Assembly: GCA_032372955.1 (NCBI GenBank)
Contig: GCA_032372955.1_4725.1
DNA length: 64,000 bases
Reading direction: 5' to 3' (one strand)
DNA from: Escherichia coli
GTDB taxonomy: Bacteria; Pseudomonadota; Gammaproteobacteria; Enterobacterales; Enterobacteriaceae
Shown here one piece after another: positions 14,143 to 62,263 of this stretch; the first letter of the stretch is position 1, and each line of letters opens with the position of its first letter. A program made the translations under genes and the position numbers. The notes beneath the pieces were generated by a model. It was not told the DNA's origin and ran no database searches. It saw nothing but the letters and a program-made list of their open reading frames with translations.

Positions 14143-17100
14143 CTACTGTGCGTACCTTGTCCGTGTTGGAGAGATTCCTTGCGGACGATTAGGTAGTGAC
14201 ATCGTCTGTTGTTGAGAAGGACCTGCAGAACCCTTACCGATAGAAGAACCCTTAACGGCTTGGATTAATTCCGAAATAAGTTCATTCGTTCTACCGGTGT
14301 TCTTTTCGATGTTCTGCTGTGTGGTCAGCTGCTGTCGGAGAATTTCACCTGCGCTACCGTAGAAGTTCTCACTTGCAACCGATGTTTGTGTCGCAGACTG
14401 CGCAACCTGTGCAGGCGTATTCGGAACCGATATCCCTCGATTTGCACCCGGGTTTGACGGCAAATCGCTAGGTGCTGGAGTTGATGTCGGTTGTCCTGCC
14501 GCGGCTTTTGCTGTTTCGAAACTTCCGGGCGTTGGTGATGCTTCTCCAGGTGCTGGGGCCGTCCCGGCAGCCGCAGACGGTTTAGATTCAGGGATAGTAG
14601 AAGATACCGGGGCTTGCGGATCGTTGCTTACAGCAGGTGTTCCGTTTGCCTCTTGTGCTGCTTCGTTCTTCACCTGTTCGGCGGTGGTCGGTCCTTCAGC
14701 TTGATCGTCTGATGTTGATCCCGATAACTCGTCCATCATTTTCTTCAGGGTGCCATTCTTAGCCGCCTGAATCCAATAAGCAGAACGTTGTTCAACATCA
14801 CGTAATCCGTTAAAACCACCGTTAACCAGATAACGAACTTGGCGCACATCACCCCGTTTTGCGGGATCGCGTAACACGTTACCTCGGTTGAGCCACCATG
14901 CAACACTACCTTCCGCCGCACCTTCCGGCGTTTCCAGGTATGTCGGATCGCTGACAAGATCCTTGTTCAAGGTCTTGGACAGACGAGCGTAGTTAGCTTT
15001 ACCGGTAACCTGAATGAAGCCACGTCCTAAATACTTCGCCCCGTCTCCTTTCTGTGTGTTTCCTAGATCTTTACGATTACCATACACACGTTCGAATACC
15101 GCTTCCGGCCCCATGCTGATCGTCTGTGCGGCATCCTGCACATCACGGAATTTGTAAGGGAAGACCTGTTTAAGACGCTCTGGTGTCTTATAGTTCCCCT
15201 CACGTACGTGAGTGTAGTTCCCCGATTCATGTTCGATGTTCGCAAGGAACATCGCCATTTCCATTGGATCGGTAATGCCGCGTTTTACAGCGGATTTAAC
15301 AAGCGCACGACGTCCAGCTTCAGGACCTGGTCCCATTGCAGGTTTCTGTAAGCCCATGTTAGGCAATCCAGTAAGATCGCCGGTTGACCCTAATCCCGCA
15401 TTGGAAGTAGCCGAAGCAGTAAAGCTGCTTGCACCTACCCTATTCCCATTGGGGTTGTAATTCGCTTCGGCGTTACTCATCCCACCGGTAATGCGTGATT
15501 TCTTCTGCCAGACACCGTCTTTCTTCTCGTACCCAGCCTGCTTCATCATCAGCTCTTGGATCTTCGATAATTTATCGGTATCCTCTTGCGATGCTTCCGC
15601 GTTCTTCTCACGAACCTTCTCTTTATCCGCATATTCTTTTAACAGATCGAGCTGGCTCTTTGTTGAACTGCTGGTGGTGTTAGCTTCAGTACCGGAGAAA
15701 CCACAACTATTCCAGGACCATACAGGCTGCAGTGTACCTTTCTCATCACGGTATTGCGTTGCGACAAGTGCTTCACCGATTTCCCAACGTTGGCTGTCTT
15801 TCAGGTTCTGTACCACGTCGGACAGAAGTCCTTGACCGCCCATGTCGCTAACGTGTTGGTAATAGGTTAAAAAGACGGGCAGGAAACGGTTATTCATCCA
15901 AGCAAACCAGATATCCTGATCCCGCTTGCTGTTAACGTCCCGTCCGAACTTCGTCGCGAATTTCTTGTAGAGCGCGACAAGATCGCCACCGTATTTAACA
16001 CCTTTACCTTCAGCGACAACGCCAGGTTCTACAGCGTCTTCGAGTTCCATCAGCACTTTTATCTGACTTAGCAACGGAACCTTAATACCGTACGCACGAA
16101 CACGGAGACTGGTGAGTTCATCGATGTATCCACCGGCAACCCATTTTCTACCACGACGGTCTACGCTTTCAATAACCGCGGTCGCGTCAAGCTTCTGTCG
16201 TCCTTTAGCGCCAGCGCTGTTGTAACGTTTATCGTTAAAACGTAACGACGCTTTCTGACCGCGTAATGCGTTAGGCGCAACGGATTTACGTTGTGTGTCA
16301 GACATCCGTGACCAATCAGCAATAGCCTCATCATGAGAGTATTGCTTAATCTGATTCTGGTACTCTTTCTTGATGGCTTCGAGTTGTTTCAGCATCAAGG
16401 TTTTGACGTCTTGACCAGCAATATAACGCGTCGCACCAGAAGAACCCAACGGGTTAGCTTCGACGTAATACGGACCATCAGGACTATCGGAAGGCCAGAT
16501 AAACGCTTCCGACCATTTCACTTTGTTCTCACCGTTCGGATATTTATCCATTTCCATGTATTTCTTCTCGTCCGGCATATGCTCTTTCCAGAGTTTGTAC
16601 GCACGAGCGAAAACAGGAATAAAACGATGCAGATACCAGCGTTTCCATTCGTTCATTCGGTCGGAATCTTCCAGGGACAATTCCCAGATTTCGAGAATCT
16701 TTTCAGAATCCGCTTTCGGATCGAATCCGATGGTATCCCCGGTCATGACCACATGGTCGGTGAGGTATGTTTCTGTCGCAAGCAGCTTCTTATTGAAGTC
16801 TTTATCGTCCCCTTTTGCACCGTATGCAATAAGACGGAGCTTCTGCATCGGGTCAGGCTTCTCAGCGAAATGCTGATAGATCTTCCATCCAGCATAAGCA
16901 GCCAACGCACCACCTGCAATAGCAAGCCCAACAGGTGAGATAAGGAATGCACCTAATCCCGATAACCCACCAACAGCGTTCAATGCGGCCCCGCCCGCCA
17001 TTAACGCACCACGTCCTAACCATCCTGCTGCACTTAGTCCTCCCTTGACTAGCGCGCCGGTTCCACTAATGAGACCCTTGCCTAACAACCCGGTTAACGA

Positions 17101-22520: not shown

Positions 22521-23002
22521 AAGTCCTTGAAAAATAAAGACTTTTTTCAATGGAAGTTGTCCGGTATTCCCGAAAGGGAGTGCTTGAAAAACCTACGAAT
22601 TGCTGGGAACCCCTAAAGCTCAACGACCCATGAGGTGCCGAAAGGCAGAAACAACAGTTGAGATGCACTACCTCCCACGGAGGCTTAGGCTGAAAGAAAA
22701 GCCGCGTAAGCGGTGCTAAGGTGCGCGATAATGGGCAATCAGCAGCCTGGTTGTTGCGTAGTAATACGGCATTCTTGAAAACAAGAATGTGAAACAACGC
22801 AGGTTCAACGACTAAGGGATTTACCACCCTGTAGAGGACAAGCGTCTTCGAAGTGTAGGTTACCGTAACAGGTGTTGCTGAAGTATTCTTCAGCGAAGCT
22901 GACGGTTTGATATAGTCTCCTCTTGCATGAAAGTGCAAGCAGCCTGTGATGTACGTATCCATGCAGGCGGTCTCAGCGTAGCGACCTGAGGCGAAGACAA
23001 GG
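22521..23002 (+). ncRNA. group I intron 1 (in beta-prime gene), 482 nt, no internal ORF
   Basis: P AATTGCTGGGAA 22598-22609; Q CAATCAGCAGCC 22736-22747; R GTTCAACGACTAAGGG 22803-22818; S GATATAGTC 22909-22917 (GACTA/TAGTC forms P7); GNRA hairpins; exon ends in U, intron ends in G; boundaries inferred, about +/-10 nt. Confidence 0.7.
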
Positions 23003-26100: not shown

Positions 26101-26392
26101 CCCGATGCTGGATATCAAGCAGGGTGAAGAAGCAACGATGACCGGTATCGGGGGTCGTTCAAAGACATCGCTTCGACGCGCACGTGATCGCGAATACGAC
26201 AAGTCGGACATTGGTGTTGTATCCGAAGGTACGAAGGATAGTGGGGACGTAGGTATTTCTGCTTACCTCGCACCTAACGCAAACATTGTGTCTGTATACG
26301 GTGAAACGAAACCTTACGACGAGAAAACGGATGGTAGCTCGTCAATAATGAGTACATCAGCACTTGCAGTACCTGCTGCTGATAGAGATGAT
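23186..26392 (+). CDS. multisubunit RNA polymerase beta fragment, exon 1
   Basis: ATG with GGAG SD; C-terminal part has beta-like TGIGGRSKTSLRRARDREYD ... VVSEGTKDSGDVGISAYLAPNANI; about 500 aa N-terminal extension; in-frame TAA at 26393 is proposed to be intronic. Confidence 0.75.
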
Positions 26393-26874
26393 TAACGCTT
26401 TTAATAGCAGGGTCCGTCTATGTGGCGACATGTAGATGAGATTCACTGAATTGCGAAGACATCCGTCGCTGTTATCGACCAAAACGGATTCTGAAAAGAA
26501 AGACGGTACGGTATAAAAACAGATAATAGCTTAAGGACAATCCGCAGCCAAGTACCTAAGGATCGCTGTGAAGCGTTCTAAGGTAAAGGTTCAACGACTA
26601 AGGGATTCATCCCCCTGTACCCCTCGAGTGAGGCATTCTCCTTGGATAAGAGAATGGTGCTGGATGCGCTGGGAAGAAGTGAACTCTCGTTGAGGTGCTG
26701 AAGAAGCACCGTTTGAAACGAGATGTGATATAGTCTGCTCTTGCGTGAGAGCGCAAGCGGGAGGTGGTGCGCCTATCATCGCCTCCGGGATAAGACTAAC
26801 GACCTTATCTGAACAATCTAATCTCAGTCTTATTTCGGTAACGGTATGTTAATACTGAATAAGAACTAAATTCG
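26393..26874 (+). ncRNA. group I intron 2 (in beta gene), 482 nt, no internal ORF
   Basis: P GAATTGCGAAGA 26448-26459; Q CAATCCGCAGCC 26538-26549; R GTTCAACGACTAAGGG 26589-26604; S GATATAGTC 26727-26735; 3' hairpin TAAGACTAACGACCTTATCTGAAC; 5' splice site uncertain within 26365-26393. Confidence 0.65.
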
Positions 26875-28014
26875 CCCAAGAGATTGGTATTTATAGGTAT
26901 CCAACACAACCGCATGATTGCTGCTGAAGGTTACGATGTACAGCCGTGGCGTACGGGTGGTGAGACTGTTATCGCGCATCGTGTTGGTAAGCTCTTCGCA
27001 GCAGCTGCCCAAGGCGATGGTGTTGTGAAGAAGGTCACTAAAACTGCGCTGACGATACAGTACGACGACCCAGAGTTAGGGGAAGAGGTTTTCCAGCTCG
27101 GTACGATAATCGGGAAAGGACCAGGTAAGTATTATCCTCACGATCTCATTACCGATTATAAAGTCGGGGATCGCGTTAAGGATCAGGATGTGGTGGTTTT
27201 CCACCGCCTTTATTTTAAACGCGATTGGTGGAACCCAGGTCAGGTTGTTTGGCGCGCAGGTGTTCTGTCTCTTGTCGGTATTCTGGATATTCCAGAGACC
27301 CACGAGGACAGCTCGTATATCTTCGACAATCTTGCTGATCGTCTCGTAACACCATCGATTAAGAGTCGTACGCTTATCGTTGACGCTCATCTCAACATTC
27401 GTGGTCTCGTGAAAATCGGTGATCATGTTGAACCGCGAACGATTCTTGCAACACTGGAAGAACCGATTGCAACCGATCTGAGTGATGAGAGTCAGGAAGC
27501 CGTTGAAGCATTACGTCGTATGAGTCAGTATAACCCACGTGCTGATGTTCATGGTGAAGTTGTACAGATCGATGTACTGTACCGCGCTCAGATTGAAGAC
27601 ATGAGTGAAACCATGGCAGCGCTCGTCGGTGAGGCAGATAAAGCACGAGCTAAACGCGTCAAGGAACTGAAACTCAACGAAGCAACAACGGGGCGTATCA
27701 ATAACAGTAACGTGAGAATAGACGGTAATCCGTTAGGCGAGAACCAGATCGCCATCCGTATTTTCATGCGTTACGACCTTGGTGCGGGGATGGGTGATAA
27801 AGGTACCTTCGCAGCTCAAGCGAAATCCGTTGTCTCTTCCGTGGGTCATGGTGTGAACAAAACCGAAGACGGGCACACCCTTGATGCTATCTTCAGTGGC
27901 ACCAGTATCGCTAACCGTATCATCGGTTCACCGGAAGTGGTTGGGACTGTGAATCTTGGTCTCCTCTACGCAACGGAACGAGCTGTTGATATTTACTTTA
28001 ACGACGCTAAATAA
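26875..28014 (+). CDS. RNA polymerase beta fragment, exon 2
   Basis: Begins PKRLVFIGIQHNRM (fork-loop-like) and contains GDKGTFAAQAKSVV ... EDGHTLDAIFSGTSIANRIIGSPE (beta GDK...GNKG / SRMN-like region); only a TTG with no usable SD in this frame, so independent translation is unlikely. Confidence 0.7.
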   Translation, partial: PKRLVFIGIQHNRMIAAEGYDVQPWRTGGETVIAHRVGKLFAAAAQGDGVVKKVTKTALTIQYDDPELGEEVFQLGTIIGKGPGKYYPHDLITDYKVGDRVKDQDVVVFHRLYFKRDWWNPGQVVWRAGVLSLVGILDIPETHEDSSYIFDNLADRLVTPSIKSRTLIVDAHLNIRGLVKIGDHVEPRTILATLEEPIATDLSDESQEAVEALRRMSQYNPRADVHGEVVQIDVLYRAQIEDMSETMAALVGEADKARAKRVKELKLNEATTGRINNSNVRIDGNPLGENQIAIRIFMRYDLGAGMGDKGTFAAQAKSVVSSVGHGVNKTEDGHTLDAIFSGTSIANRIIGSPEVVGTVNLGLLYATERAVDIYFNDAK

Positions 28015-39105: not shown

Positions 39106-41680
39106 TCCTACAGCGCAATACTTGATAAATCATGCTGCGCTGAATGTGAACTGCCGTCCATTAATGGACAACCAGCATCGTATCAAGATGCGTCGTATTA
39201 CCGGAAAGACCGGCGCAGTAAAAAACTTTACGGCTTGGCATCGTACATTCAATCTTCCTGACGATACGAATACGTTCCATGTGTTTGTTATTGGACGACA
39301 TATGGGAGAGGATTTTAATGTTGGGGCTGGGCGGTTATGGTGGCGAGAACTCAGCAAGTTCTGTGAAGTGAAGGGATCGTATTACAATATCTATACCGAG
39401 GACGGTAAAGAATTCCCGTTGACATTAACGTGGACGGGTAATCTGGAAAACGAAACGATGCTGGTCTGTGTGCTAGACCAACCGAATATCGCTGACCTTG
39501 GCGTTGGTGATTATTACTGGCGCACTTATCTCAACGCTGACTTCGCAGAAGGCTATCCGTCATACACGAAACCGGCGGGGCGTGAAGTGCATGTCCTTGG
39601 GGGGATCGTAACCAGCTCGACACAGGTTCTACAGTGGCAGCGTCAGCTATACGCCTGGCGTAAAAAGATCCAGGAAACCGGTATCGGCTGGACGCACTGC
39701 AGTATCAACGGTGAAGCGGTTGAAGACATTCCGCCGACAAGTTTTAAGATCGGTGATAGCATTCAGGTCGTCTATGACGGTACCGTTGTTCATCGGTACA
39801 GCTTCCGTGTAGAAGATCTTAAAACGTACAACAGCGATCTGGACAAAAAAGTCAAGTATCTTATTCATCCACCGAAAGATGAAGTGGATACCAAGATCAG
39901 GTATCGTGATGACATTGATATCTACGTGAAAGGGCCTAACGGAAAAGGGCGTTATTACCATACCAACCAGGAAAATAGTATCCGCATGCTCACGCATCGT
40001 GATTACGGAATTCCTGTTGATTATGTCAGCTACTTCGTTGAACGGGTTGATGGAGCAGAATCGCTTCGTGATTTAACCCTGGAAGTGGTTGTCCGTGATA
40101 GCGGTTTGAAAACGCAGTTAACCTTCGAACATAACCGCATCCACGAATTGTATAAACTTCCAGACGACGTTATCGTCGGTGCGATGTTGGAACAGAACGC
40201 CAATATACCTGAGTTCTTTGCACGTACGCTTGAAGCCAGTGATTATACGCGCATCATGCGTAATAAGGAAAGCAATATCACGATCGACATGGTGACCTCC
40301 GCTTACGGGTATAATGCGATGGCAAAACTGGTTGCAGATAGTCCACAACGCGTTACCGACGATATGGGCACACCTACCGCTGAAGTACCATGGGGTTTGC
40401 GTGCAAATGCGACGTTCTTCGAGTACGACAGTGACGGTCTATTATTGGGTATCACGCAACATCCGGCAGGCCGACATTTTTATCCGCAATATGAAACCAC
40501 GTCCTATGTTGAGGGTCGATCGGGTGTTGGTGGGAGAACGCTTGATTACGTGATGGGTGTTGCCGACGTCCCAATCCGTGAGTGGGCGAGTTACCGCTGT
40601 TATAGCGTAAACCTTCGTAACGGACAACCTGTTGCGAACACATGGAAGGATGTTACCGACGATGCTTCTGTGGTAACGGAAGAGAACGGGGTAATAAAAT
40701 GGTCGTTGGATGGAAGAAAGCAAACCGGTTTAGTATTGTTCGACACCTACTTCTTAGCGTATAAGACCACAATACAACATCGTAACCACACCGTATGGTT
40801 GGATGTTACGACGGGTATTGATGTTGAATATCCGCTGCCTTTCGAACCCGGTCAAATCGAAGTATGGTTAGGTGACGAGCGAGCAACCAAAAGCTACAGC
40901 TTGGTACGCGATATCGATTATATCGTAAAATGGCCAACGATCGTAATCAACGCGAAACGGTATTTCAGTGAAGGGAACACACACACGGTTACCGTGAGAT
41001 GCACCGGTTTTCCGCGTACGGACTTAACCGGTGAAACCGTTTACGATACCGGTTGGACGATGCATAATCAGCTTTCTTACGACGATGTGTTTAATGTTCG
41101 TGACGATCACGTTGTTCGTATTGTGGTTGGTGGACGTATTTACGATCGTAGCGAAGTGGTTACCGCGGAGGACACGCAATACCCTGCCGACATCAAAGTT
41201 AACGATGGGGTACCTTATGCGATTTATCACGTTATTGCCCCTATCCGCGGTCTCGTGAACACAGACACGTATTATCTACGCGACAAAAGTCTTGAAACCG
41301 ATAAACGCGTTGAAGACTATATGTCCTTGTATTTCCCTCGTGTGAAGTATGATACGCCAGTAACGATCGAAAACAAATACCAGCTTATCAGCCCAACGTT
41401 GATGGCGGTAACGTACGATCTTATCAATGGTGTTATCGATCCCGATCCTGACATGCAGGACGTTAAACTGATGGATTTCATGGAGCCGTATAAATGGTTC
41501 TATGACTACGATCCTGCGTTACGTAATTACGATTGGCGGATGGTCTCTATTCATCCACACGACAGTTGGACGCCGCTTGAAGTTACGGTTAAACAACTGC
41601 GGTTCTTAGAACGCGTCAGTCGTGAGTTCTTGAAAGATCGCGTGGACTTCACGAAGTTTTACACAATCAAAGGTGAGTGA
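39086..41680 (+). CDS. hypothetical protein, 864 aa (possible structural)
   Basis: GTG start 39086 with GGAGG SD 6 nt upstream; 20-nt overlap with upstream gene. Confidence 0.65.
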   Translation: MVLNASNPTAQYLINHAALNVNCRPLMDNQHRIKMRRITGKTGAVKNFTAWHRTFNLPDDTNTFHVFVIGRHMGEDFNVGAGRLWWRELSKFCEVKGSYYNIYTEDGKEFPLTLTWTGNLENETMLVCVLDQPNIADLGVGDYYWRTYLNADFAEGYPSYTKPAGREVHVLGGIVTSSTQVLQWQRQLYAWRKKIQETGIGWTHCSINGEAVEDIPPTSFKIGDSIQVVYDGTVVHRYSFRVEDLKTYNSDLDKKVKYLIHPPKDEVDTKIRYRDDIDIYVKGPNGKGRYYHTNQENSIRMLTHRDYGIPVDYVSYFVERVDGAESLRDLTLEVVVRDSGLKTQLTFEHNRIHELYKLPDDVIVGAMLEQNANIPEFFARTLEASDYTRIMRNKESNITIDMVTSAYGYNAMAKLVADSPQRVTDDMGTPTAEVPWGLRANATFFEYDSDGLLLGITQHPAGRHFYPQYETTSYVEGRSGVGGRTLDYVMGVADVPIREWASYRCYSVNLRNGQPVANTWKDVTDDASVVTEENGVIKWSLDGRKQTGLVLFDTYFLAYKTTIQHRNHTVWLDVTTGIDVEYPLPFEPGQIEVWLGDERATKSYSLVRDIDYIVKWPTIVINAKRYFSEGNTHTVTVRCTGFPRTDLTGETVYDTGWTMHNQLSYDDVFNVRDDHVVRIVVGGRIYDRSEVVTAEDTQYPADIKVNDGVPYAIYHVIAPIRGLVNTDTYYLRDKSLETDKRVEDYMSLYFPRVKYDTPVTIENKYQLISPTLMAVTYDLINGVIDPDPDMQDVKLMDFMEPYKWFYDYDPALRNYDWRMVSIHPHDSWTPLEVTVKQLRFLERVSREFLKDRVDFTKFYTIKGE

Positions 41681-41682
41681 TA

Positions 41683-43416
41683 ATGGGAAGAGAGATTACC
41701 AATCCGGTGCTTTATGCACAACAGCATCCGGATAAACTCGCTATTCAGGATCTCGACAGACGCTATACCACCTATGCGTATAAAGAGATCTATAATGGCG
41801 TTGAAGAAGACTGGAAACTTTACGTTCCCAACGTGGATGATAAAGTTGAAGACTGGGATACGAATGCGGTGTACCGTGTTATCGCCGTAGACGATCGCAC
41901 AAAACTAAGTACCCTTAAACTTATCGGTCAGCTGTCTGCTCCGTTCGATGGCCAGGGCGACGGGACGACAACCTTTGAAGGTATCGATCCGACGTGGTCG
42001 TACGACACATGGCGTGTATTGATTAATACGAACACGATCCCAGCTACGATGAATATCGATCGTCGTTTCCATCTGCACGGCTCGGATATTCGACGTATCG
42101 CAGTGTTCCGCGGTTCTGATATTAGCGCCAAAGGCGAAATCATCAGTGCGATGTATGATAACAGCGGGAATAAGATCAGTGACTTTATTCCGTGTCAGCT
42201 TATCGCTTACAAAGATGGAACGAATAAAGCCATCTGGGCACCCCGTGAAGGCTACTGCATTAAACCCGTCGAAGATTTTGAGCAGGTGATGGTGGTGGGT
42301 TATGGTGACGGTCCGCAGCCGTTATCCATGAAGCGCATGATCGTTCGTATCACTGACTACGTGCGCACTCCAGACCAGGGTATTAAATATATTCTGGAAG
42401 ACGGGGTACGACTGAAATCAACATGGCTGAGCAGCAGCGATACCAAACTGCTTGAGTTACCGATCAACGTCAACCTGGACTCCGTTGACCTTCAGGCTGA
42501 AGTCACCTACAGTGATGGTTCCATTAAACATTGGCCGGTTACTGGTAACAAGGTTGTGTTGGATGGCCTTAACGTCTTCACGTCCCAGGTTATCAACAGC
42601 AAACACCCGCTGGCGTTACACTACTACCTGGATGACGATGAGGACACGTCCTACGCGTTACCTGGCGCAGTGAAACATATTAGTGTCCCTTATACCGTTG
42701 TTTCTAAAGAAGCGAAAGGGGCATACAGTGTTAAACTGTTCTGCTATCCGCAATGGGTATCTGATGCGGTGGGATACGAGCTGGTATTCTGGTTGTACAA
42801 CGTTGACCGTGAGCGATACTACAACGTAACCGATAAAGTACAATTGGCGCTGAACAGTCCTGAGTTTAATCCGAAGAAATACGGACAACCTCAGGAATTT
42901 GCGTACAACATCTGGTTAGATGAAGTCGATCCTACTGTTTACAAACGCGTACGTCATACGCAGACTATTCGAATGACGTTACTGCAAGCAGGTTCGGCAA
43001 CATCCGGTGATTACTGGACAGTAACGTTCAGTTCGCAAACAACGCCGACGACAACGGACGTGTACGGTCGTAATACGAAAGCGTTGTTTACTTACGATGT
43101 TGCTGGTAACGCGTATGTTGATTTGACGAACAAACACTCAGATCTGGGTGAATGGTTGAAGCAGCTTTACTACCCGATACATCCGCTCTATCTTGAGAAA
43201 ACGGAATCGAAAGCACCAGAACCGACCCACTTTGAAATCATGGTTGGTCCTAACGTGCAGAAACGTTTCGAAATCTCGCAATGGAATAGGAACAATAACG
43301 TCCCAGGTGGTACGGGACAGGATAACGCTAACCTGTATATCCGCTGGATTAAAGTACAGAATGGCGTCGACCTACATCTCGGTATCACAGCAGTCGTTAT
43401 TAGTAAAGTCGCATAA
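41683..43416 (+). CDS. hypothetical protein, 578 aa
   Basis: ATG 41683 with AGGTGA SD, just after upstream TGA. Confidence 0.7.
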   Translation: MGREITNPVLYAQQHPDKLAIQDLDRRYTTYAYKEIYNGVEEDWKLYVPNVDDKVEDWDTNAVYRVIAVDDRTKLSTLKLIGQLSAPFDGQGDGTTTFEGIDPTWSYDTWRVLINTNTIPATMNIDRRFHLHGSDIRRIAVFRGSDISAKGEIISAMYDNSGNKISDFIPCQLIAYKDGTNKAIWAPREGYCIKPVEDFEQVMVVGYGDGPQPLSMKRMIVRITDYVRTPDQGIKYILEDGVRLKSTWLSSSDTKLLELPINVNLDSVDLQAEVTYSDGSIKHWPVTGNKVVLDGLNVFTSQVINSKHPLALHYYLDDDEDTSYALPGAVKHISVPYTVVSKEAKGAYSVKLFCYPQWVSDAVGYELVFWLYNVDRERYYNVTDKVQLALNSPEFNPKKYGQPQEFAYNIWLDEVDPTVYKRVRHTQTIRMTLLQAGSATSGDYWTVTFSSQTTPTTTDVYGRNTKALFTYDVAGNAYVDLTNKHSDLGEWLKQLYYPIHPLYLEKTESKAPEPTHFEIMVGPNVQKRFEISQWNRNNNVPGGTGQDNANLYIRWIKVQNGVDLHLGITAVVISKVA

Positions 43417-57231: not shown

Positions 57232-57682
57232 TCGTGGAACAGATACCTATCGTCTGACGGTTACTATCCCTGATTGGTTACAAGCAGAGCTGAGCACCAT
57301 GAATGACCCAGAAGATCCGTTGCGCATAACAACGTTGTTGGTACTGGCGTTACGGTATCTTAATCGTCCCGTCTTGTCACGCGAGGCATTCGAGAATGCG
57401 TATATCCTCGGATACGTTAAACGTGAAGACATGGTGTTGTTTACGAAGATGCAGCTCTGTTTCTTAAATCAGCTATGTCTGTTCAATGTCGGACGTACAA
57501 CTAACGCACATCGTTACGGATGGGAGGTTGTACAAATCTATCCTACCGTTATGGTAGTATCTAGTTTTCGTCGTGCGTTGTGGGACGATCCAGAAAAGAC
57601 TGTGGCGTCGTTAATACATACGCCGAACAAGAGAAACACAGGATGGAAAAATACGCCACTGAGCGCCGTCGCCACGTTATAA
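57194..57682 (+). CDS. hypothetical protein
   Basis: ATG with GAAGGA SD; 162 aa. Confidence 0.6.
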   Translation: MDMLPFSTLNVVDRGTDTYRLTVTIPDWLQAELSTMNDPEDPLRITTLLVLALRYLNRPVLSREAFENAYILGYVKREDMVLFTKMQLCFLNQLCLFNVGRTTNAHRYGWEVVQIYPTVMVVSSFRRALWDDPEKTVASLIHTPNKRNTGWKNTPLSAVATL

Positions 57683-58041
57683 AACGCGATGACTACTATC
57701 TTGAGCAACTGCTCGAACAGGCGGTTAACGACATCTATAGTCAGGCAGAAGACGATTACTGTTTGTCTGGGTGGGGTACCGAAGGAAGGCAGATGCTGAT
57801 GAGGAATCTACTGCAAGAAATTGCGGATGTTGTCTTATCGGATATCGACGATGACTTTATCGATGAATACTGCGAGGAGAGATCGTTATCACGAAACCTT
57901 ATCGTGCGTATTATCGGACGTGTTTATTATCGTGTTGTCCAGGATATGGAATTCACAAAAACGTTTTATCGTGGCGGAACACTATCATCTATCCGGGTCT
58001 GGTCAGCGACGACTTTCGGATACGAATACATTTTTAAATAA
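57643..58041 (+). CDS. hypothetical protein
   Basis: First ATG 57643; ORF-track start 57580 is GTG with larger overlap. Confidence 0.5.
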   Translation: MEKYATERRRHVIKRDDYYLEQLLEQAVNDIYSQAEDDYCLSGWGTEGRQMLMRNLLQEIADVVLSDIDDDFIDEYCEERSLSRNLIVRIIGRVYYRVVQDMEFTKTFYRGGTLSSIRVWSATTFGYEYIFK

Positions 58042-58052
58042 AGGATGCTATT

Positions 58053-58466
58053 ATGCCAGCTTCTGATTTAGAAAAGATTGGCTCTGTTGTGAGTTTTGAT
58101 GTGTACGCCCCAGAACTTGGGGTTAACTTCAACGGAGTAGAAATTAGCGCCGTGTACAATTATCGTACGGCTGTGCGCAACGGCCGTGATGTAGACGCCA
58201 TTCACCAACAGATTTATTCCCGGCTCCCGTCTAGTGTACCGAACGATCCGACGAGATACAATTACGTCGAGGTCATTACAGCCGATGGCGAGTATGTGAT
58301 TCTAGGGATTCCTTGGATTAAGGAGAGTACAATCGTTGTTACCAAGACACTGATCTATAAACCCAGCATCGTTATTGAGGATGCGACCGACGTGACGAAA
58401 ATTAATCAGATTCTTAATCAGGCAGGTTACACTAAGATTGTTGCTAACGACTTGATTAATCAGTAA
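58053..58466 (+). CDS. hypothetical protein
   Basis: ATG with AAGGA SD; 137 aa. Confidence 0.65.
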   Translation: MPASDLEKIGSVVSFDVYAPELGVNFNGVEISAVYNYRTAVRNGRDVDAIHQQIYSRLPSSVPNDPTRYNYVEVITADGEYVILGIPWIKESTIVVTKTLIYKPSIVIEDATDVTKINQILNQAGYTKIVANDLINQ

Positions 58467-58664
58467 ACTTTTACATACAGTACTATATATTTTGAGTGGT
58501 TAGTGCCATCAGTGAAATAAGATAGATTCGTGTTTTTTATTCCTTCTTTGGCGAATCGCCTCTCGTGTTACAACCTCCCTCTGATCTAGCATCATTGTGC
58601 ACGAGAGAAGATCTTGTTTCACGAACATCATCGATATCTTTCTGTCAGTTATTATCCTTTTTAA

Positions 58665-58698
58665 CCGATCTGGCTTCGGCTGGATCGGTTCTTTTTTA
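58665..58698 (+). terminator. rho-independent terminator with UUCG tetraloop
   Basis: ccgatctggc-ttcg-gctggatcgg (10 bp, two G-U) followed by ttctttttta. Confidence 0.7.
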
Positions 58699-58765
58699 TG
58701 CCGTCCTTCTTTTTTAACAGATATACGAGATGATGTAGACAGACTAAATAACTTTTGGAGGATTT

Positions 58766-60919
58766 ATGGAAAATCCGTTCTTTTACGATGAAAACGGATA
58801 TGGTCGTACGTTGGATATGACCAAAGAAGCGGTACAGGATTATACCCTGTTCTTAATGCGCACGCGTGGGATATCTCAGCAGGAAGCGTTGCAGTTTGTT
58901 CTTGAAACGGTTCGTCCTGGTGGAAAATACGGGATGGTTGATCCCGACTGCCTGGTATTAACACAGCGTACCGAAGGAAATCGAGAAAAAGAAGTCATCA
59001 AGTTCAGCCAATACTTCAACGATATTAAAGAAAATAATTTAATTATCACGCCGGTATGGGCTAACTGTTATCCGCGTGAAACACGTTCCAGTGTGTTAAG
59101 CGACTTCGCGGTTGAAAACGGTAAGTTGCGTAAGAAACAAAAGAAACAAATGTCGATAGCACAAGCACACGGACGTAAAGACGAAGCGGAGCTACACGAT
59201 AAACGACAAACCAACACCAAGTTAGACAACAACAGTTTGTCAGGAACCCAGGCGTCCAAGTTCAACCCTTTTTATAATCCGATTGCGCATCCAAGTTTAA
59301 CGACAACATGTCGCTGTGCTTCAGGTTCAGCCAATGCGAACAACGAACGCTTCCTTGCGGGCAATTTCCATTATTACGATTGTGATATCGCAATTGAAAA
59401 CATCGTGAGTATTGTCCGTAACAGCGATCGTAAGGCCATTGAGCAGGTAATGGTAAAATACAAACTGCATTACCCTACGCCGGAAGAGGTTTGGGCTAAC
59501 GTATCGAAATGCTTGCATCGATATACTTTCGACCCAGAGAAAGAGCTGACCATCCGGGAGCTAATTACCGGTTTAACGCCATTAGAACGCGCCTGCTACA
59601 TGTACAGCAATAACCTGTACTCGTTACGTGAGCTTAATCCTGAATTCGTTCGAGATTTTCTTGATTCGTTATGTGAGCTGGCATCCGAACCTGTTGAAAC
59701 GATGGAAGAGGCTAAAGCCATTATTGCTTCCATGGATAACAACACGGTCGCTTGGATCACAGCACAATGTACGGAGTTCTTGAATGGGGAGGCGATTTAC
59801 GTAGCGCTAGAAAAAGGAAATGAACTTGGTTATCGTCTTACCGCAGCAACGACAAAATTAATGCTGCAGCGTATCCAAAGCTACGCTGATTTGATTATGG
59901 CGTTCTGGCGTACCGAGAACCAACCGGCTGGAGTTTATGCTTTCCCGTCGGCAATCCGTGAAGTGGGTGTGTTGTCTGATACCGACTCGACGGTGTTTAC
60001 CTGCCAGGAGTGGGTTCAGTGGCGATTTGGAAATATGGAGATCAATCCAATTTCGACGCGCTTAGCAAACACGCTTATCTATCTGGTTACGCAGATTACG
60101 GTTCATCTGATGGCGATGTGTTCTGGTAATATCGGTGTAGCGAAAGAGCATATGTACGTGATGGAAATGAAGAACGAATATATGTTCTTGATTCTGTCGT
60201 TAACCTCGATGGGTAAAAACTATTACGGTTACATGACCATGCGTGAAGGGGTTCCTATCAATCCACCGAAGCTGGAATTGAAAGGTCCGGTTATGCGTGA
60301 TGCGTCAGCACCAAAAATGATCGTCAAACGTGTTGAACGCATGATGTGCGGTATCATGGATAAGCTGTTACGTAATGAGAAGATCAGCATTCGATTGGTT
60401 CTTGACGATATTATCTCGTTAGAAAACGAAATCGTTGAGTCCATGAAACGCGGTGATCCCGATTTCTTAACACGTGTTAAAGTGAAGCCACATGTTGCGG
60501 TAACGAAACAGTCTTACGATATGTGGGAAGAGGTGTTTGCTCAATCGTACGGCCATTGCCAGGAACCACCCTATATTGGGGTTCGTGTGCCGTTGGCGAC
60601 GAAGAACAAAACGCTTCTTAACGATTGGATTGATTCCTGGGAGGATAAAGGGTTACAACAACGTTTCCGTGATTGGATTGTACGTAACGATAAGAAAACG
60701 ATAAGCAACTTAACGATACCATTACCGGTGATCGAAGCCTCCGGGCTTCCCGATATCTTTATTCAAGGGATGGATATTCGTCGATTGATTTCTACGCTCG
60801 TGCGTTCGTATTACGCGTTAATGGAAAGTTACGGTATTTTCATCTCGAATAAAAACAATACATTGTTAGCCCAAGACATTGCAGCAAGTTATTTACCGAA
60901 GCGAGAAACCACAGAGTAA
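58766..60919 (+). CDS. hypothetical protein, 717 aa
   Basis: ATG with GGAGG SD; contains acidic SDTDS and GKNYYGY motifs of unknown significance. Confidence 0.7.
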   Translation: MENPFFYDENGYGRTLDMTKEAVQDYTLFLMRTRGISQQEALQFVLETVRPGGKYGMVDPDCLVLTQRTEGNREKEVIKFSQYFNDIKENNLIITPVWANCYPRETRSSVLSDFAVENGKLRKKQKKQMSIAQAHGRKDEAELHDKRQTNTKLDNNSLSGTQASKFNPFYNPIAHPSLTTTCRCASGSANANNERFLAGNFHYYDCDIAIENIVSIVRNSDRKAIEQVMVKYKLHYPTPEEVWANVSKCLHRYTFDPEKELTIRELITGLTPLERACYMYSNNLYSLRELNPEFVRDFLDSLCELASEPVETMEEAKAIIASMDNNTVAWITAQCTEFLNGEAIYVALEKGNELGYRLTAATTKLMLQRIQSYADLIMAFWRTENQPAGVYAFPSAIREVGVLSDTDSTVFTCQEWVQWRFGNMEINPISTRLANTLIYLVTQITVHLMAMCSGNIGVAKEHMYVMEMKNEYMFLILSLTSMGKNYYGYMTMREGVPINPPKLELKGPVMRDASAPKMIVKRVERMMCGIMDKLLRNEKISIRLVLDDIISLENEIVESMKRGDPDFLTRVKVKPHVAVTKQSYDMWEEVFAQSYGHCQEPPYIGVRVPLATKNKTLLNDWIDSWEDKGLQQRFRDWIVRNDKKTISNLTIPLPVIEASGLPDIFIQGMDIRRLISTLVRSYYALMESYGIFISNKNNTLLAQDIAASYLPKRETTE

Positions 60920-62080: not shown

Positions 62081-62232
62081 ACGAACTCCGTAAGAAGATG
62101 GTAAACGGATATGACATTACTCTCAATAAGAGAAGTAAAAGTTTACAGACATATCCTGATTATATGTAGAAAGAATGTTGCTTCTCGGCAGCGTTCGCCT
62201 AGGGGTTTATATCGTTCAATGTGGTTACACCA

Positions 62233-62263
62233 ATATTGAAAAAAATTTCAGGGTTATATTACC
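62233..62263 (+). promoter_or_regulatory. candidate phage promoter, copy 3 of conserved 31-bp motif
   Basis: TATTGAAAAAAATTTCAGGGTTATATTACCT, about 70 nt upstream of ATG 62335. Confidence 0.5.

Follow-up and report, generated by a model that had tools for sequence, protein, structure and literature searches.

A candidate terminator-bearing leader of the DNA polymerase gene in a Goslar-like nucleus-forming phage

The closest described counterpart of the region considered here lies in phage phiKZ, whose transcripts were mapped by ONT-cappable-seq (Putzeys et al., Microlife 2024, PMC10914365; supplement bioRxiv 10.1101/2023.10.13.562163, Tables S3-S5 and S7). In the gap between PHIKZ049 and PHIKZ050, that map places the terminator T021 at 40406, the 'middle promoter' P023 with a transcription start site at 40441, earlier reported by Ceyssens et al. 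2014, and, in the 5' untranslated region (5'UTR), the intrinsic terminator T022 at 40502 (PMC10914365). Two transcripts share this start site: TU034 (40441-40502, 61 nt), which contains no gene and appears in Table S7 under the label '5'UTR-derived ncRNA candidate' (ncRNA, non-coding RNA) of PHIKZ050, and TU035 (40441-42806), which reads through to give the PHIKZ050 mRNA (PMC10914365). Here we analyze the same junction in a 64,000-nt stretch of DNA (hereafter, the window) from contig GCA_032372955.1_4725.1 of the Escherichia coli assembly GCA_032372955.1, in which a gap at positions 58467-58765 separates the gene of an SH3-fold protein (SH3DP) from that of a divergent family B DNA polymerase (divDNApol). 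This gap is probably transcribed as the leader of the phage's DNA polymerase gene, carrying a terminator before the coding sequence.

The phiKZ map contains further details that bear on this reading. The upstream-operon units TU031 and TU033 also stop at T022, no start site was mapped downstream of T022, and the polymerase mRNA begins at P023 (PMC10914365). Among the terminators within phage 5'UTRs, 34/42 are associated with a long read-through or a predominant short (<250 nt) transcript with a shared 5' end, for which conditional termination has been proposed; the short leader RNAs are abundant, and two of them were confirmed by Northern blotting, the one of PHIKZ050 not being among them (PMC10914365). 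The phiKZ terminator consensus is a hairpin followed by YTTATKYYGT (PMC10914365), and phiKZ 'middle' promoters carry TACT about 22 nt upstream of where transcription starts, preceded by an A-rich stretch (Ceyssens 2014; Wicke 2021). The sequence of P023 reads TTTTAC-N18-G(+1).

Two other kinds of regulatory RNA resemble the region in part. The T4 gp43 translational operator is a small hairpin overlapping the ribosome-binding site. As with the T4/RB69 gp43 operator, which serves DNA polymerase autoregulation, an RNA structure is found in the 5' part of the mRNA for a phage DNA polymerase, but the structure here lies 100-250 nt upstream, and a terminator stands between it and the ribosome-binding site. 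In bacterial riboswitches and attenuators, too, the 5' leader is structured and an intrinsic terminator stands ahead of the regulated gene; in contrast to these, no antiterminator, conserved ligand-binding core or Rfam match was found in the gap. The region is best filed as an enlarged relative of the phiKZ 5'UTR-terminated leader RNAs at the orthologous junction.

Positions 57500-59800 of the window are 97.7% identical to Escherichia phage vB_EcoM_Goslar (NC_048170; Goslar minus strand). By this identity the source phage is Goslar-like; Goslar belongs to the Chimalliviridae and is a jumbo phage that forms a nucleus. The genes on either side of the gap, both on the same strand as it, are homologous to Goslar gp243 and gp244, and the order SH3DP, gap, divDNApol is kept in synteny from Goslar to phiKZ. 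For the comparisons below, we used a set of eight Goslar-like genomes, comprising the window and seven more from protein and DNA searches (Goslar itself, L003, together with L004, L005 and L023-L026), and two more distant lineages of the Goslar clade, L006 and L007, with polymerase identities of 64% and 58%, respectively; variation is given for the set of eight unless the lineages are named. The gap between SH3DP and the polymerase gene measures about 300 nt in all Goslar-like genomes and in L006 and L007; its composition in the window is 36% GC. A literature search found no Goslar transcription start site map and no report of a Goslar ncRNA, and the text of the phiKZ transposon screen does not mention the SH3DP-polymerase gap.

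A first-pass annotation of the window had described the gap as non-coding, with an AT-rich start, an internal stem and a strong terminator, and all of these features are present where it had put them. As in phiKZ, they form an ordered series at the junction of SH3DP/PHIKZ049 with divDNApol/PHIKZ050: a middle-type promoter, a non-coding leader, an intrinsic terminator, a T-rich tract and then the polymerase gene; the upstream operon would also end at the same terminator, as is predicted here from sequence. The two loci differ in several respects. The leader is 61 nt long in phiKZ versus about 205 nt here, with an extra three-way-junction domain, and the GUGAAUGUWWGUUGAU common to the leaders of phiKZ, PhiPA3 and D6 is absent from the window leader. 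In phiKZ, T021 lies between the stop codon and the promoter, whereas the Goslar clade has no such terminator, and T022 is much weaker than the terminator of the window. The phiKZ transcripts were mapped; those of the window are predicted from sequence. The shared motif, about 16 nt at the start of the polymerase leader, is kept in phiKZ (L018), PhiPA3 (L015) and D6 (L030) while the rest of the gap differs, which suggests a functional initially transcribed sequence in these three Pseudomonas chimallivirus genera.

The predicted promoter follows the SH3DP stop codon directly. Like the phiKZ middle promoters, it has an A-rich stretch and TTTAC at -24 to -20, AT-rich sequence before +1 and a G start; it departs from them in its core, which is TACA and not TACT (L006 and L007 have TACT), and in its spacing of N19 instead of N18. 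The AT-rich start of the first-pass annotation, tacatacagtactatatattttgag, occupies 58472-58496. The gap can be aligned among the three lineages (window, L006, L007) in three blocks only. The first, right after the stop codon, is TTTAC with 18-19 nt ending AT-rich and then GAG, in the form TTTAC-N18-GAG in L006 and L007 and TTTAC-N19-G58494 in the window; the second comprises the terminator, its T-run and TTATG(C/T)(C/T), and the third is a short box with the ribosome-binding site. The columns of the promoter block are nearly the only conserved ones besides those of the terminator and the ribosome-binding region. Counterparts outside the clade are TTTTAC-N18-GTGAATG in PhiPA3, AAATACC-N17-GTGAATG right behind the stop codon in Pseudomonas phage D6, and AAAAATACT behind the stop codon in Serratia phage KpGz_1, where a leader of about 90 nt and then a terminator follow. 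Positions 58480-58523 show no variation. By homology, we infer a transcription start inside the gap at about position 58494.

The same motif occurs a second time in the window, upstream of the nuclear-shell gene chmA (TTTAC at 62142-62146, N19, G62166), and is also found there in L006 and L007; the polymerase leader and chmA are both middle-promoter loci in phiKZ. The chmA copy adjoins a distinct early-type promoter, TTATATTACC, conserved in the three lineages, and this pair mirrors the early primary and middle secondary start sites of phiKZ PHIKZ054 (chmA; PMC8244752). The arrangement upstream of chmA thus has the appearance of tandem promoters, a distal TTTAC-N19-G (62142-62166) and a proximal early-type GGTTATATTACC (62252-62263), both kept in L006 and L007; GGGTTATA is among the most over-represented 8-mers of the window. 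In a scan of the Goslar genome, 10-11 of 20 motif matches fell in non-coding DNA, which makes up 8.4% of the genome. We regard this enrichment as supportive, not decisive, because the criterion includes AT-richness and so favours intergenic DNA. A candidate Goslar 'middle' promoter motif, AAA-N-TTTAC-N17-19-G, is now usable. Further AAA-N-TTTAC-N18/19-G copies stand in Goslar non-coding DNA (L009-L013), for example at 188968-188991 (+) and 15686-15710 (-); one lies behind the gp224 stop and is aimed at the convergent gp223, where it could yield an antisense or short RNA, and another lies within the 854 non-coding nt that separate gp022 from gp021. Two other promoter types were considered for the gap and rejected: no sigma-70 promoter was found on its + strand, the only match being a weak one on the minus strand, and the Goslar early promoter motif kept upstream of chmA is absent from it.

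The UUCG-tetraloop terminator of the first-pass annotation is the strongest of the sites in a local scan (seven found versus 2.4 +/- 1.3 in shuffles). Its hairpin energy is -17.9 kcal/mol, the sequence downstream of the stem reads CUUUUUU, and a putative terminator is annotated at the corresponding site in the Goslar record. Its architecture is that of the Chimalliviridae terminator motif (Putzeys 2024), a hairpin, a T-run and TTATGCCGT, although the stem is AACCGAUCUGGC/GCUGGAUCGGUU with a UUCG loop and not of the CCYCCCC/GGGRRGG type. The tail fits the phiKZ motif, the window reading GGTTCTTTTTTATGCCGT, and is identical in Goslar, L007 and Xanthomonas phage RTH11 (RTH11: TTTTTATGCCGTC); a hairpin followed by TTTATGC(C/T)GT recurs about 35 times in the Goslar genome. 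Since TTATG belongs to the general terminator tail of phiKZ and Goslar, the TATG found here is not by itself a sign of a late promoter. The L007 leader has an additional terminator-like hairpin upstream of its main terminator (L007 3781-3812, AACCCCUGAAGG/UUUAGGGGUU followed by UUUCUU), and this lineage may have two tandem stops. Two short direct repeats are also seen in the gap of the window: the P2 loop TTTTTTATTCCTTCTTT (58533-58549) resembles the terminator tail TTTTTTATGCCGTCCTT (58692-58708), and TCCTTTTTAACCGAT (58655-58669), on one side of the terminator, recurs as TCTTTTTTAACAGAT (58708-58722) on the other. They may be traces of local duplication.

The sequence between the predicted start and the terminator folds more stably than expected by chance. 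On the + strand, the folding z-score is -4.35 including the terminator and -2.92 for the leader alone (58494-58655), with 0/200 shuffles as stable; the z-score of the minus strand is merely -2.19. The stem noted in the first-pass annotation, ctctcgtg (58560-58567) with cacgagag (58600-58607) enclosing 32 nt, is present, extends to 9 bp and belongs to helix P3 of this larger fold, the predicted elements of which are listed in Table 1. Positions 58600-58642 do not vary. The leaders of L006 and L007, about 200 nt long, are also more stable than their shuffles (z = -2.5 and -4.1, respectively); for each, the predicted structure combines a 5' hairpin with a multi-branched domain that a long helix closes. 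We consider the leader fold probable, not proven. Known RNA families, whose exclusion the first-pass annotation had named as a check, gave no match in the gap: Rfam, applied to the whole window at the gathering threshold, to 58300-58900 in permissive E-value mode and to six related loci, gave nothing there at that threshold and otherwise only E >= 0.1, and neither a tRNA nor a tmRNA was detected by ARAGORN. A covariance model of the junction domain (R1), searched against the whole of Goslar, L006, L007 and eight other chimalliviruses, matched only the window and Goslar and revealed no paralogue.

Comparison of the eight Goslar-like genomes indicates that this sequence is constrained. In the flanking genes, 166/483 third codon positions are variable (34%), and 25/966 first and second positions are (2.6%). 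The corresponding value for the leader (58494-58662) is 20/168 (11.9%), threefold below that of third codon positions (Fisher p = 6e-9), and for the proximal UTR (58701-58765) it is 3/65 (4.6%). In the terminator (58663-58700), substitutions were found at 0/37 sites (0%), the stem is invariant, and a single 1-nt change in the length of the T-run (58692) was seen. Because the leader is far less variable than third codon positions, the gap is to be regarded as functional sequence and not as spacer. Some of the changes agree with the predicted helices: the P2 pair 58526/58556 is seen as A-U, G-U and G-C, and four further changes are of the wobble type and retain pairing on the + strand only. In total, five pair-keeping + strand wobble-type events were counted versus one pair-breaking event, and breaks lie at helix ends.

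The constraint does not come from a conserved reading frame. According to the first-pass annotation, the only open reading frame in the gap was an implausible one at 58597..58791. It is not the sole one, as three short frames overlap the gap, at 58565-58717 (+), 58597-58791 (+) and 58509-58631 (-); its implausibility was borne out, because all three lose their start or frame in close relatives. In 6/8 genomes, GTA replaces the GTG start at 58597-58599, and in two there is a 1-nt insertion after 58598; further indels that break the frames occur at 58517 and 58531-58534. Counterparts are absent from the distant loci L006 and L007. The segment 58494-58662 contains no ATG, and its GTG and TTG frames have no ribosome-binding site. 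The predicted short RNA has no frame of 10 aa or more preceded by a Shine-Dalgarno sequence. A small protein gene in the gap was rejected on these grounds.

Table 1. Predicted features of the SH3DP-polymerase junction (window coordinates).
Feature	Position	Strand	Basis
SH3DP gene ('SH3 fold domain associated with phage DNA polymerases')	58053..58466	+	Pfam PF20287, E = 3e-36
SH3DP gene, homologues Goslar gp243 and PHIKZ049	58053..58466	+	Goslar annotation; phiKZ and PhiPA3 synteny
Predicted phage 'middle-type' promoter: A-rich stretch and TTTAC (58470-58474), then AT-rich -10 region (58484-58493)	58466..58493	+	Pattern match
Predicted transcription start, G58494 (uncertainty about +/-2 nt)	58494	+	TTTAC-N19-G spacing
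5'-terminal leader hairpin, 5 bp, loop of 4	58496..58509	+	Minimum free energy structure = centroid structure; invariant in 8 genomes
Three-way-junction domain	58512..58622	+	Folding and RNAalifold
P1 closing helix, 12 bp	58512-58523 with 58611-58622	+	Folding
P2, U-rich 19-nt loop	58525-58531 with 58551-58557	+	Folding
P3 and apical extension	58560-58568 with 58599-58607	+	Folding
Linker from junction domain to terminator, mostly single-stranded	58623..58662	+	Folding
Intrinsic terminator: 12-bp stem 58663-58674/58679-58690, UUCG loop, U6 (58692-58697), tail TTATGCCGT (58695-58703)	58663..58703	+	Local scan
Proximal 5'UTR of the polymerase gene: T-rich tract, conserved ATAAC box, Shine-Dalgarno GGAGG at 58757-58761	58704..58765	+	Sequence and alignment
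divDNApol gene ('divergent family B DNA polymerase'), homologues Goslar gp244 and PHIKZ050	58766..60919	+	Pfam PF20286, E = 9e-204

From the phiKZ transcripts we infer that the same events take place in the Goslar-like phage. A phage RNA polymerase would recognize the promoter of phiKZ 'middle' type right after the SH3DP stop, with its A-rich stretch and TTTAC at about -24 to -20 and its AT-rich -10 region, and transcription would begin at about G58494. The first approximately 170 nt would fold into the 5' hairpin, the three-way junction closed by the 12-bp helix and the single-stranded linker. The Chimalliviridae-type intrinsic terminator would then stop part of the transcripts, giving a non-coding RNA of about 205 nt, while the remaining transcripts would read through, the DNA polymerase mRNA so formed having a 5'UTR of about 272 nt. 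The same terminator would end the transcripts of the upstream PhuZ-to-SH3DP operon, for which the leader would double as the 3'UTR. Our best guess is that the folded domain sets or modulates terminator read-through, or stabilizes the RNAs that end or start there.

This picture alters that of the first-pass annotation, which proposed a candidate small RNA, a structured transcript of roughly 150 to 200 nt running to the terminator, as an alternative to a long 3'UTR. A discrete transcript of about 200 nt is plausible in view of the phiKZ mapping, the promoter pattern, the folding and the selection; a free-standing small RNA gene, in the form proposed, is not supported. The phiKZ polymerase mRNA (TU035) arises by read-through from the same start, and the element is therefore better called a leader with a premature terminator than an independent small RNA gene. 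The choice between small RNA and 3'UTR is also a false one: since no terminator stands between the SH3DP stop and the promoter, transcripts of the upstream operon must cross the region to the same terminator.

Several observations weigh against a polymerase leader. It has no detectable sequence or covariance-model similarity to phiKZ, L006 or L007, so its homology with the phiKZ leader is positional only. In several other chimalliviruses (Ea35-70, SPN3US, SA002, OBP, RP31, KpLz-2_45 and PS1), the junction contains a terminator but lacks a leader, and a leader is hence not needed for polymerase expression across the family. The promoter pattern is low in information content. Covariation across related phages, put forward as a check by the first-pass annotation and computed for the eight genomes, is not significant: there is one double-sided change with six further pair types, 294/500 shuffles reach the observed score, and diversity is low. 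Variable sites are also not depleted in stems (10/90 paired versus 11/79 unpaired columns). Finally, the terminator, with its 12 bp and U6, far exceeds phiKZ T022 in strength; few transcripts may pass it, and transcription of the polymerase gene may begin instead at the TATG of the terminator tail (58697-58700).

The last point leads to the main rival explanation, in which the region is only a structured 3'UTR of the PhuZ-to-SH3DP operon and the polymerase promoter lies at or after the terminator, for example as a late-type T(-3)ATG(+1) at 58697-58700; TATG is the core of phiKZ late promoters (PMC7598289). Besides the strength of the terminator and the passage of upstream transcripts through the region, it draws on the leader-less chimalliviruses, in which the stop codon, the terminator, the T-rich tract and the polymerase gene follow each other, and in which the sequence after the terminator is similar (TTTATGACCCACTTCTTTTTTTTTT in Ea35-70 versus TTTTTTATGCCGTCCTTCTTTTTT in the window); other Goslar gaps, too, measure 130-180 nt from stop codon to terminator. 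Against it speak the TTTAC-N17-19-G that three diverged lineages keep directly behind the stop codon and the mapped promoter at the homologous site in phiKZ, where the polymerase mRNA starts at P023 and no start site was found downstream of T022; the TTATG, as noted, is part of a general terminator tail. We hold this explanation to be unlikely, while treating it as the main competitor. A decidedly less probable one is a conditional attenuator, in which the leader would bind a phage protein, a metabolite or an RNA in the phage nucleus, control read-through and thereby tune polymerase production. The succession of promoter, structured leader, terminator and gene is the classical layout of such a switch, the short and long transcript pairs of phiKZ 5'UTR terminators offer a precedent, and the leader, under purifying selection with long invariant blocks, is about 200 nt long and multi-branched in all three Goslar-clade lineages. 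Against it stand the absence of an Rfam family match and of a sequence core conserved across the three lineages, the non-significant covariation, and the fact that no pairing of an antiterminator with the 5' arm of the terminator is predicted: this arm stays essentially unpaired once the 3' arm is removed. A pairing between the P3 loop and the 3' arm of the terminator, spotted by eye, was set aside, as it arises from the resemblance of the loop to the 5' arm around a GATC palindrome and would come too late to prevent termination. Ribosome-coupled (leader-peptide) attenuation is unlikely because transcription proceeds inside the protein-bounded nucleus, away from ribosomes; PMC12908238 describes transcription and translation as kept apart in nucleus-forming phages. 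Were termination regulated at all, some factor would have to act on it within the phage nucleus.

The remaining explanations move the function away from the polymerase gene. If the region specified a small RNA acting in trans, the terminated RNA, about 205 nt long, would itself be functional, e.g., exported to the cytoplasm to pair with mRNAs of host or phage or to sequester a protein, and its position would be incidental. Its own predicted promoter, a Rho-independent terminator whose U6 tail resembles that of enterobacterial small RNAs, the invariant single-stranded stretch 58623-58642 and the abundance of the phiKZ short leader RNAs would suit this role. However, a search for duplexes between the leader and its own UTR gave results no better than shuffles, which for pairing with the polymerase ribosome-binding region held in 2/3 lineages. 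Conservation of the sequence ends at the Goslar species level, and several genera have the succession of promoter and terminator linked to the polymerase gene, an association that suggests action in cis; we consider a trans-acting function highly improbable. We give next to no credence to an element acting as DNA, such as a replication origin or packaging signal, or to a small protein gene. The region is AT-rich, contains repeats, adjoins the DNA polymerase gene and has short reading frames, but it shows no GC-skew inflection and no iterons or repeat arrays, only short two-copy repeats, the wobble substitutions fit a + strand RNA, and the frames are disrupted in close relatives and missing from L006 and L007. 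A more far-reaching version of the leader reading is that the three-way-junction domain of about 110 nt, specific to Goslar-like phages, is a new nuclear regulatory RNA that would bind a phage protein or metabolite to govern anti-termination and, with it, when or how much DNA polymerase is made, or that the 205-nt RNA is exported and acts in trans on the host; we find this quite unlikely.

Elsewhere in the window, the only Rfam matches at the gathering threshold are two group I introns. One (RF00028, 52.8 bits; 26391-26757) lies within a 523-nt segment (26362-26884) that has no Goslar counterpart and interrupts the gene homologous to gp207, which encodes the RNA polymerase beta subunit; compared with Goslar, this phage has one intron more. 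The other (22535-22939, 64.1 bits; segment 22524-22939) corresponds to the intron annotated in Goslar; about 1.5 kb with Goslar gp206, an HNH/NUMOD-like endonuclease, is absent here, leaving a version of the intron without the reading frame.

Jumbo phages that form a nucleus rely on RNA polymerases of their own for transcription in a protein shell, and how they time and dose expression is poorly understood. The layout of promoter, leader, terminator and DNA polymerase gene, mapped so far only in phiKZ, recurs in Goslar and its relatives, and the Goslar-clade leader is larger, folded and selectively constrained. Most likely, this is a real but fairly ordinary regulatory region, and if it is merely a constitutive leader and 3'UTR, the result is ordinary annotation. 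Goslar is a genetically tractable E. coli model, and its leader is a convenient test case for whether 5'UTR terminators are regulated or constitutive; should the region prove to be a nuclear or trans-acting regulatory RNA, it would be the first functional riboregulator described for a nucleus-forming phage.

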